A stretch of DNA of 61,558 nt, filler included, from Hausera hauseri (Eukaryota), in NCBI GenBank assembly GCA_046269625.1. It is 12 parts of 12 records of this genome, joined end to end, with 100 filler letters (N's around TTAATTAATTAA, not from the genome) between each part and the next. Parts side by side here need not be neighbours in the genome. Positions count along the whole stretch, not along the records: positions 4,129 to 9,722 come from JBJURY010224521.1; 11 more parts are not named here. One strand, given 5' to 3'. Below, piece after piece: positions 5,881 to 8,800 of the stretch. Numbering within the stretch: position 1 is the stretch's first letter; every line of letters begins with the position of its first letter. The notes below the pieces were generated by a model. The model worked only from the letters and a program-made list of their open reading frames with translations. It made no database searches and was not told the DNA's origin. The position numbers and the translations under genes are program-made.

Positions 5881-8800
5881 GCCCCCTCCTCAGACAATGC
5901 TGTCCGCAGCATTGCTGGGTAGATTTCTAAGGTACCATTGTCCAGTCGATAGCTGGATGATTCATAGTGTCTCCATTGCCCTTTCTTTTTGAATTTGAGC
6001 TTTAATGTAATTGTTTGATCTTTGGGGATTTTCTTTCTTTTTCTTTTTGAATCTATGGTGGACATCTCATTATAACTAACGATTGGGGTTGATTGCATAT
6101 TACTCGTTGATGGTTGGGTTACTGATTCCGATTGACTATTTAAGTTTGAAGTTTTGACCGAATTTAAGGATACTTCTGATGGAAATTCTATTGTAGTATT
6201 TATTATTTCTGTATGATCGACATCCATAGGTTCGTCAGTTGATAGGGTAGTGTTTTTATCAGATAAGATTAAGGATTCCTGTGAAGTTTTAGGTACTATT
6301 GGTATAGAATCCAAATTTGATTTCTCGTCTCGATATTCTTTTAAGGTATTGTACATATCCAGGATAATTAGAGCCTTATCTCTTGTCCGGGTTGGATATT
6401 TGATATTGTTATATTTGAGGAAGATCTGTTTTTGGGTCAATGTTCTTTTTGGGTTTATACATTCATTATAGAACAAATCACGTATGCCCATTATCTGATC
6501 CATATTGAAGAGGGCTAATTGGGAATTAGTATTGAATAGAGTCATGCCTACTATCATTTTTCCTACTAATTGTCGGCGAATTGTAGGCCAAATTTGATAT
6601 TGGTCGGCTTGGCCAATTAAATTTGTTTCTTTTATCCCACTTATCTGAGTATTATAGTTGTCCACACGATCTCTTGGAGTAATGAATTGGTCAAGAATAA
6701 TTTTCCTTTCTAAATCCATTAGAGTGATTTCTGTGAGAGTGGCCTCTGAGCGGGCGTTTCTCATTAGGTAGGCGACATTGGTGGATAGGATTATCACTTG
6801 ATTTCTTGGGACTATAGGTATCCTGGAGAAGGAACATCCTTCTTCGAGTTGAGTCTTATTGGGAAAAGGTAGATTATAAATAGGTACTTCATATTCTGGG
6901 CGAGGTATTGTTTCACGTCTGGTAACTTCGATGTATAAAATAGGACTAGGTCCTCCGAAAGTTCGTAGTGTGATAGTGGCATTTTTGTAGAAGCGCTGGT
7001 CAAGTCGGATAGTAGTAAAGGGAATAACATCCATTTGATCTGTCATATTATTTCTGTGGCTTCTGCTTTTTAGTTGAAGATTGGCTTTTATAACAGATAG
7101 ATAGACGGAGGTTGTTTTTGTAGATACATCTATTAAGTCGGATAGTAAGGTAGATGTGTTGGGCAATTTTATAATCAGTCCTGCCCTCTGAGTGACCAAA
7201 TGGCCTTTAAGATTGTTGGGAATCAGTGAAGCTTTTGCGAAATAAAGATAGTCTTTATGTTGGGTGCTTTCCAAATTGGAGGATATATTGTAATAGAAGG
7301 ACTTGGCCCTCTCTACAGTTTCGGCACCTTCTTGAACTAAAAGAAAATACATCAATAATAACCATAGAAGTTTTTGAAAGATAATTTTATGATAGGTTGC
7401 ATAAAGCTTTGCAGCCTGAAATTTATCATAGTTATTTTTGTAGGTCGCTAAGAAATCTGCAGCCTTATTACTTATGTATGTACACATACATAGTGTAACA
7501 TCTGTTAACGGGCGAGATTGCCGTTCATATTCTGATAGCTTTTCAGCCTGGAAAGGCGCATTAACTATATCATTTTGGGAATCATCCCTTAATAATTTTA
7601 ACTGTTGTATAATATTTTGGGTCTTGCGCATCCTACGTCTTATTCTAGAACAGTAGATTATGATTGGTAGTAGTATAACTATTAAAACTAAGAGAATTCC
7701 AAGAGTAATAGTAATCCAAAGATATTTGTTAGAGCTTTCTATTAAAATTTGTTTAGTGGTCGTTTTTATAATTTTTGTTGTGACAACCATTGGTAATTTT
7801 AACGTTTTCTCTAGTTTTCTAACAGTCTGTAACGTCTGCCCATCTTCATCTAGTTCCGTTATAATTACTTTATAATTAGTATTGGCTTCCAAAGGCATAC
7901 AAGCTGATGTGGGCTCTTCCGGAGTTAAAACTCCTTCGCTTATGGCTCTATGATTAAGATAACACTCAAATTTTATGTTTGTGTTTTTTAAGTCGGATAC
8001 TGTGATAATTAATGAATAAGTTGTTGGTTGGATAATTATGTCCAATTTTTTGATATTCTTCTTTAGTTCCACAATTGGACTGGTTGTCTTTTCATATATC
8101 ATAGTTACCGATGTACTTGGTCGTGTTGCTAGGGTAATGATTTTTCTCGTCGTGGTGAAGGTTACCTTTGTAGGGGCTTTTACCATTATTTCTGGGCCAT
8201 CCGCCGTTTTTGACCATGTATGACCATTATACGTGGTCCAGTAGTATATCGTATACTGCTTATTGAAAACGATGGGACAACATTTATATGGGTTTTGATA
8301 GTCTGGTTCACAGAGTATAGTATTGATTCCATCGATTATTATATATTTGAACTTTATATATTCTGTAATTACAACATCAGGTTCCGCTGTTACACAAGGT
8401 CCATCTTTCATAATCTTAGCATAGAATGAAATGAGGAAGTATGGTCGATGGAAATAATGCGTAGTGCCGGGATATGAGAAGTATGTTCTATAACTTTGGT
8501 CGCTTTTTCCTGTTGCGTATTGGATTCTGTATGTCTCTCCAAATGAAAGTCCACAGCAAGTATGTATTGAATGGTTATAGAACAAATCACAATTTTCTGG
8601 TGTCACTTTTTCCAAAATAGGAAATTTTGATATGAATATATGTATATATTCATCCGTAGTCAAGTTCCGGTTGGCTGTAATCTTTATACATGGATATTTT
8701 CCAACTTGTACAGCTTTATATATGACATCCAGAGATTGAGTCGATACACAAGTAACTAAACTTAATACCATAAACGTTGTTACTAATAATAAATTAGGAT

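Follow-up and report, generated by a model that had tools for sequence, protein, structure and literature searches.

A gypsy-type retrotransposon in the Hausera hauseri assembly carries a predicted AlkB-like/REX4-like pseudo-enzyme as its 3'-most accessory gene

The 3'-most accessory gene of a gypsy-type retrotransposon in the Hausera hauseri assembly GCA_046269625.1 is predicted to encode a two-domain pseudo-enzyme that, in the reading we favour with modest confidence, serves the element as a non-cutting binding or adaptor module. The gene was found in a window of 61,558 nucleotides, filler included, composed of 12 contigs joined by N44-TTAATTAATTAA-N44 linkers; inverted repeats of ~110 bases that were considered as element ends turned out to be these linkers. 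Neighbouring contigs point to a probable invertebrate host. The best preserved version of the gene, copy 1, and its homolog, copy 2, lie on separate contigs.

Copy 1 is located on contig 2 (4129-9722), where a single minus-strand frame of 1292 codons stays open between the contig edge (9722) and 5844 and encodes, in this order, an integrase, a signal-like stretch, an ectodomain, a transmembrane helix, an AlkB-like domain, a DEDDh-like domain and a low-complexity tail. The gypsy-type integrase (8800-9722, minus strand; Pfam rve, E 6.7e-13) is truncated by the contig end. The region that follows in the same frame as both the integrase and the two-domain protein (7660-8795, minus strand) was delineated from the ORF, a model and alignment, and comprises a signal-peptide-like stretch, an FN3-like ectodomain and the transmembrane helix; the ectodomain model is of low confidence (pLDDT 52), with FN3 arrays as its best Foldseek matches, and its final repeat can be aligned to copy 2 and to a metagenome locus, L007. 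Next come the AlkB-like domain (6912-7355), the DEDDh-like domain (6327-6800) and a Ser/Thr-rich tail (5844-6326) with a basic KRKRKK motif at 6047, all on the minus strand, and the last codons of the ORF run into the 3' LTR, the stop falling within its first 40 bases. The polypurine tract GAGGAGGGGGC (5881-5891, minus strand) is immediately followed by TG, which together set the start of the LTR (5013-5880, minus strand); the far end, placed by sequence and contig depth, is approximate. Contigs from four public runs cover the stretch as many copies of 80-99% identity, with the depth dropping to flank level beyond the LTR, below about 4936-5000, and in runs X1 and X2 many diverged copies span the DEDDh-like domain. 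The two-domain gene is the final coding unit ahead of the gypsy 3' LTR, and the order integrase, gene, polypurine tract, TG is the placement of a Ty3/gypsy accessory gene; the original prediction that the domain is retrotransposon-borne is borne out by this position. No Rfam match was found in the window.

A possible separate start of the two-domain protein can be recognized in the sequence as an in-frame ATG at 7352 followed by an acceptor-like, T-rich tract ending in AG (7337-7352, minus strand). A separate protein of about 500 amino acids is likely, because this ATG fits the start positions in the family and because copies 2 and 3 show a stop and a new ATG, whereas a polyprotein tail is possible since the copy 1 gene shares its frame with the membrane protein.

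The peptides that had originally been quoted as exonuclease-like are all encoded in one open frame of the minus strand (6800-6330), starting at 6800 (QVIILSTN), 6731 (EITLMDLE), 6569 (LVGKMIVG) and 6488 (GIRDLF). A phmmer search against 177,635 PDB sequences with E up to 10 gave three matches, all of them DEDDh enzymes (ISG20, 2.2e-4; ISG20L2, 2.7e-3; SDN1, 0.023), and the best ranks of the family profile went to ISG20L2 (1.8e-31), ISG20 (9e-19) and SDN1 (6e-16). When the model of the C-terminal domain was compared with 48,161 chains, ISG20 was again the best match (Z 17.2, rmsd 2.5, 159 residues aligned), with Exuperantia also among the fold matches (Z 10.6); Foldseek concurs, and the best ESM Atlas matches are RNase_T clusters (0.91). 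Pfam produced no match to the DEDDh-like domain of copy 1 itself. With ISG20 as the best PDB match both by sequence (E 2e-4) and by structure, the proposed REX4/ISG20 type holds; a direct tie to the antiviral biology of vertebrate ISG20 was rejected, as nothing beyond fold likeness speaks for it.

The catalytic residues of ISG20 are given in the available text of its description as Asp11, Glu13, Asp94, His149 and Asp154 (PMC9157404). In copy 1, ExoI reads S-T-N (6785-6779), with S and N at the places of Asp11 and Glu13, the ExoII position corresponding to Asp94 is T (6530), and in ExoIII the places of His149 and Asp154 are taken by T (6392) and K (6377). None of the five positions holds an acidic residue, and the sole nearby acid is an Asp (6380) one residue ahead of the ExoIII Asp position. 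The earlier readings of ExoI as STN and AVN in copies 1 and 2 and of a missing ExoII acid in both (T and A, respectively) were correct, and the ExoIII loss in copy 1 adds to them. That the copy 1 domain lacks the canonical active site, and is a predicted pseudo-exonuclease, is well supported. The Arg53 that contacts the 2'-OH in ISG20 is likewise absent from copy 1 in the phmmer alignment, so that its putative ligand may be either RNA or DNA.

The homology of copies 1 and 2 extends about 170 amino acids upstream of the DEDDh-like domain. To model both domains, AlphaFold2 was given a 48-row, family-only alignment (no templates, no AlkB rows and no cellular REX4 rows), about half of the rows being DEDDh proteins with an intact site, a composition that biases the model towards the exonuclease fold; the resulting structure has a pLDDT of 89.8 and a pTM of 0.86. 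Residues 8-155, compared with the 48,161 chains by VIA, are most similar to ALKBH6 (Z 12.8, rmsd 3.1 over 143), followed by Ofd2 (12.4), ALKBH7 (12.2) and E. coli AlkB (11.2). Foldseek agrees on an AlkB-like N-terminal domain, cupins and viral AlkB (BFVD) also being among its matches. At the sequence level no AlkB match was obtained with the family profile. The HxD..H..R motif of AlkB (iron triad and 2OG arginine) is absent from the N-terminal domain of copy 1 and, with strand VII placed by DSSP order and the AlkB topology, HxD/E together with the strand-VII His occurs in none of the 46 rows that span the region, a stray HxE being found in two. The family has instead the motif IPNxLK..R..H..E, in which copy 1 carries Ser in place of the conserved His. 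The model, the fold comparison and the motif tally together lead us to predict a dead AlkB-like fold; as a predicted domain of ~150 amino acids ahead of the exonuclease domain it is new here, and it would add an AlkB-fold pseudo-enzyme invisible to Pfam and sequence searches.

A profile built from the two sequences and searched against 1.84 billion representatives gave 365 matches at E up to 0.001, and the upstream domain is present in 46 among the 150 matches listed (local profile, E below 1e-3; 22 were profile seeds). An informative name was carried by none of the 22 family-side proteins looked up, and, to judge by sequence, the two-domain protein is a member of a previously unnamed family. 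A word-indexed protein search with the copy 1 region returned no match among 1627 candidates, and the family profiles only 3 and 4; no relatives were found in the viral contigs scanned. The ExoI D-x-E is kept in 25 of 48 rows and lost in 23, and when all five sites are considered, with Asp or Glu admitted at ExoII, 24 of the 43 covering rows are complete, 17 have none and two have one or two. Pfam RNase_T matches 21 of the 48 rows. The original claim of a lone dead domain kept in two lineages has to be revised: both copies lack the ExoI and ExoII acids, but the domain forms the C-terminal half of a larger, two-domain protein, and about half of the family has an intact site. The dead rows are only about 20% identical to copy 1, their replacements vary between lineages (S-N, A-N, A-R, S-S, H-H) with no common new motif, and several carry Glu at the ExoIII Asp position. 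A fused RING is found in only one of 44 family rows examined; P0004, a dead form, carries such a fusion. A second, separate group of pseudo-exonucleases (P0009, P0028, P0034 and P0049; 730-800 amino acids) was also observed, with four tandem REX4-like domains that mostly lack catalytic residues.

The family is split, with an SH-aLRT of 100, from 10 REX4-like rows that form the outgroup of a tree without REX1, PAN2 or ISG20 rows; among the non-family matches looked up, four of eight clusters are named RNA exonuclease 4 and are the nearest named cellular matches. Both the names and the split agree with the earlier proposal of capture from a REX4-like gene, but the tree contains no other DEDDh subfamily, and the proposal is upheld only to that extent. 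The N-domain tree needs five changes of state, three of them forced by starred branches (bootstrap 5-7), and the exonuclease tree computed minus the catalytic columns needs three, one of them forced. A FastTree clade that unites all dead forms was not accepted as proof of a single loss, since that tree includes the catalytic columns and long branches and the other trees need three to five changes. For the latter reason, the catalytic site has likely been lost repeatedly in the family.

Both domains evolve under constraint in the intact relatives: dN/dS is 0.04-0.10 for the N-terminal domain (measurable in 4 of 6 pairs), whereas values of 0.03-0.05 were obtained for the exonuclease domain (3 of 6) and of 0.14-0.24 for the tail (5 of 6). 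The identity of the exonuclease domain exceeds that of the N-terminal domain by 18 points in nine intact pairs versus 2.8 points in eight dead pairs (p 0.001, with three pairs sharing a member removed), and wherever a tail could be measured in a dead pair (five of five pairs), identity was higher in the exonuclease domain (36-58%) than in the tail (21-45%). Dead rows retain P-R (R in 23/23), D258 (23/23), which sits directly ahead of helix 259-270 in the model, G-x-R (G in 22/22, R in 21/22) and a terminal W (18/19). In the AlkB-like domain, K57 and R64 are kept in 19 of 20 dead rows versus 12 of 24 intact rows, and the IPNxLK, R, H and E positions are kept in both. Among 40 variants listed of about 1,440, 30 are in the ORF, 19 of them synonymous and 11 not, and only one lies inside the DEDDh-like domain. 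From these comparisons the dead exonuclease domain appears to be under relaxed yet continuing constraint, and, being about as conserved as its AlkB-like partner, it is judged not to be in plain decay. The median net charge is +1 in dead domains and +1.5 in intact ones (p 0.27; copy 1, +6), and, as the dead domains are no more basic than the intact ones, the RNA-binding reading gains no support from net charge.

The homolog originally noticed at ~49570-49910 is real (21% identity over 279 amino acids, E 7e-7; 49096-49917, plus strand). This copy 2, traced by alignment and Pfam on contig 10 (49096-50180, plus strand), consists of the AlkB-like and pseudo-DEDDh domains downstream of RT-RH-IN and an FN3-like membrane gene. 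Its ExoI is A-V-N and its ExoII A, so that catalytic positions one to three are A, N and A; the frame breaks near 49915, right after a GIREL motif, and ExoIII-level sequence is found in a different frame (49884-50180). Copy 3, recognized by alignment on contig 12 (56354-57979, minus strand), is a P0004-type gene with frame changes and stops that has lost the part matching P0004 residues 133-336 and kept the C-terminal RING-like region. Both copies show a stop after the membrane protein, followed by the acceptor-like TTTTATTTCAG ahead of an ATG.

The surroundings of relatives were explored by a metagenome scan with 18 intact-site rows and an intact ExoII pattern, which gave 15 loci from 264 matched stretches. 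ExoI and ExoII are kept in all 15 loci and ExoIII is visible in 14, as expected from the intact ExoII pattern used, and the genomic context of dead forms is therefore provided by the window alone. At locus L004 the gene is followed by an LTR (TGTTAG..CAACA, 3033 to about 4614), a primer-binding site at 4621, which we take to be of the tRNA-Lys type, and a gag with a zinc knuckle; only one LTR separates the last gene from PBS-gag (3033-4640), an arrangement consistent with either a one-LTR circle or a tandem element. At L001 and L002 a purine tract and TG lie downstream of the gene, at L003 and L008 RING and TRAF-like genes stand beside intact relatives, and L007 encodes a membrane protein whose final repeat aligns with the ectodomain of the window. 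Intact relatives thus sit ahead of an LTR or polypurine tract, near RING, TRAF, coiled-coil and FN3-type genes; pol was reached in none of the 15 loci.

Several further features of the window and the loci deserve mention in their own right. An integrase in frame with a signal peptide, FN3-like repeats and a transmembrane helix is seen both in copy 1 (8795-7660) and at L007 (1-1512), and on contigs 6 and 12 up to the ectodomain; a receptor decoy or attachment protein is possible. Contig 9 (40052-44635, minus strand) holds a gypsy element with frame changes, in which a Monjiviricetes-type fusion glycoprotein (Pfam E 2e-34) precedes protease and RT; the RTs of this element and of copy 2 share 83% identity, and a fusion env may coexist with the FN3-like membrane gene in this lineage. 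L003 (1-5150) and L008 (54-2995) contain a run of accessory genes with two RING-H2, one RING, a full TRAF-like gene (RING, zf-TRAF, MATH) and coiled-coil ORFs, two of these genes beginning right after the same acceptor-like TAATTTTAG. Contig 3 (13814-15359), probably a bacterial contig, encodes a bacterial-type dihydropteroate synthase and a FolB-HPPK fusion. A 561-amino-acid ORF without a Pfam match (30918-32603), with a related fragment at 29453-29934, has motifs that presumably resemble protein-primed DNA polymerase B of the Polinton/adintovirus type, and a broken gene with two MIF4G domains and an ankyrin-like end (53522-55265, minus strand) in our view resembles UPF2. A non-LTR-type reverse transcriptase with a zf-RVT-like region occupies 35606-38489 (minus strand), and contig 1 (1-4028) is filled by a degenerate (GTTC)n satellite.

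We favour a binding or adaptor module because of the dead site, the fold, the retained motifs, the open frame of 1292 codons and the mostly synonymous variants in the ORF, and also in view of the RING, TRAF, coiled-coil and FN3-type neighbours and the precedent of PXL and Exuperantia. Weighing against it are the relaxed constraint, the neutral charge, the absence of Arg53, the single RING fusion in 44 rows, the broken state of copies 2 and 3, and the shared frame with the membrane protein, with which the copy 1 gene may form a polyprotein tail. The ancestral element would already have carried a dead AlkB-like domain fused to an active REX4-like 3' exonuclease; catalysis would later have been dropped, probably more than once, with the fold retained, about half of the family still encoding an active-type site. 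The protein, carrying a basic nuclear-type motif, is probably produced from its own start or from a spliced message. As to ligand and target, we infer, with the least assurance of all these steps, that its partners may be 3' ends of nucleic acid or a host factor of RNA surveillance, and that binding to them may shield element RNA or cDNA; in RING-fused versions (P0004, copy 3) the same module could deliver a host target for ubiquitination. For the element, the benefit would lie in the handling of its RNA or in escape from host defences.

Among the other explanations, the one that survives best, and that we consider possible although clearly less probable than a binding module, assigns the work to the AlkB-like domain, which might for example recognize modified nucleotides or hold a protein in its pocket, with the dead exonuclease domain as a structural partner that binds nothing. 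After the catalytic loss the pace of change in the exonuclease domain matches that of the AlkB-like domain, many kept residues look structural, such as D258 before helix 259-270, and the pTM of 0.86 suggests a fixed packing of the two domains; with a dN/dS of 0.04-0.10 (four of six pairs measurable), intact relatives show purifying selection on the N-terminal domain, whose IPNxLK, R, H and E positions persist whether a row is dead or intact. However, the invariant arginines of the dead rows (P-R, G-x-R) could contact nucleic acid, and in copy 1 Ser replaces the conserved His in the very domain that would be at work. That the gene is a decaying passenger, its catalysis lost and the remainder drifting, is improbable: the dead rows have long branches and, of the three window copies, copies 2 and 3 are broken, copy 3 through a large deletion that spans the domain, but dead forms make up 23 of 48 rows and, at ~20% identity to copy 1, their frames remain open, their motifs invariant and their fold confidently predicted, whereas neutral drift would have brought stops long before such divergence. 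Least probable of all is a nuclease acting through a rebuilt, non-canonical site, for which one could cite the Asp (6380) adjoining the ExoIII Asp position, the Glu in several dead rows, the invariant D258 and fly Maelstrom, which reportedly cuts RNA without the DEDD residues, since copy 1 has no acid on the ExoI strand or the ExoII helix and Lys at the ExoIII Asp position, and the replacements differ among dead lineages with no shared new motif.

The binding-module reading can be carried further, to a proposal that we regard as unlikely, namely that complex gypsy elements possess an undescribed counter-defence module in which a dead AlkB fold reads modified nucleotides and is joined to a REX4-type exonuclease, which some lineages would have kept active to remove marked or immunogenic RNA and others dead, to serve as a decoy, certain versions being wired to a RING ligase that destroys a host RNA-surveillance factor.

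The closest cellular counterparts are the REX4/ISG20/ISG20L2 DEDDh exonucleases, with which copy 1 shares fold (ISG20, Z 17.2) and profile (ISG20L2, 1.8e-31); it differs from them in the replacement of five sites, in the AlkB-like domain in front and in being encoded by an element, and the family occupies its own branch. Exonuclease and AlkB accessory genes are already known from LTR elements, separately, as far as the available texts go. The bdelloid Juno and Vesta elements carry a 3' accessory ORF3 for a DnaQ-like DEDDy exonuclease with catalytic residues reported intact and a change of DEDD to DEED (PMC5408684, in the part available). They resemble the present family in having a 3' accessory exonuclease ORF in an LTR retrotransposon, and the DEED change also occurs in many intact rows here; their ORF3, however, is RNase D-like and DEDDy, whereas the present family is REX4-like and DEDDh, includes an AlkB-like domain and comes in intact and dead forms. 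According to the same text, exonuclease activity of genes captured by LTR elements is yet to be shown (PMC5408684). Orchid Ty3/gypsy elements contain an AlkB (2-ODD) ORF, described in the accessible text as an active m6A demethylase close to plant enzymes (PMC9289625). The present gene likewise places an AlkB fold on a large gypsy element, and viral AlkB domains are among its BFVD matches, but unlike the orchid domain it has no HxD..H..R, no sequence-level AlkB match and a fused exonuclease.

The giant planarian gypsy elements Burro/GYPSM1 encode RING, TRAF/MATH and coiled-coil proteins and a mononegavirus-type env upstream of the protease (PMC6431247, available text). RING, TRAF/MATH and coiled-coil genes are similarly found at L003 and L008, and the env-before-protease order on contig 9 only; for Burro, compared here by its description only, the portion of that text available describes no exonuclease, AlkB-like or FN3 gene (PMC6431247). 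In the literature searched, which excluded most subscription journals, Repbase and supplements, we found no description of an AlkB-like/REX4-like fusion in retroelements, and the accessible parts of PMC6338049 and PMC13269885 hold nothing on it.

Host pseudo-exonucleases with a DEDD fold, among them PXL, Exuperantia, EXD1 and Maelstrom, bind nucleic acid according to the available texts (PMC13659232, PMC8097288). Copy 1 is like them in combining the DEDD fold with the loss of catalytic residues, the match to Exuperantia reaching Z 10.6, whereas those proteins are cellular and, as described there, belong to other DEDD subfamilies, PXL and Exuperantia pairing with a SAM-like rather than an AlkB-like domain. 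Compared with these systems, the present family offers natural active-type and dead versions of one two-domain protein, in which catalysis and binding can be compared directly, and bears on the role of exonuclease genes captured by LTR retrotransposons; it points to complex, invertebrate-type retroelements with a retrovirus-like accessory set aimed at host RNA and ubiquitin pathways.
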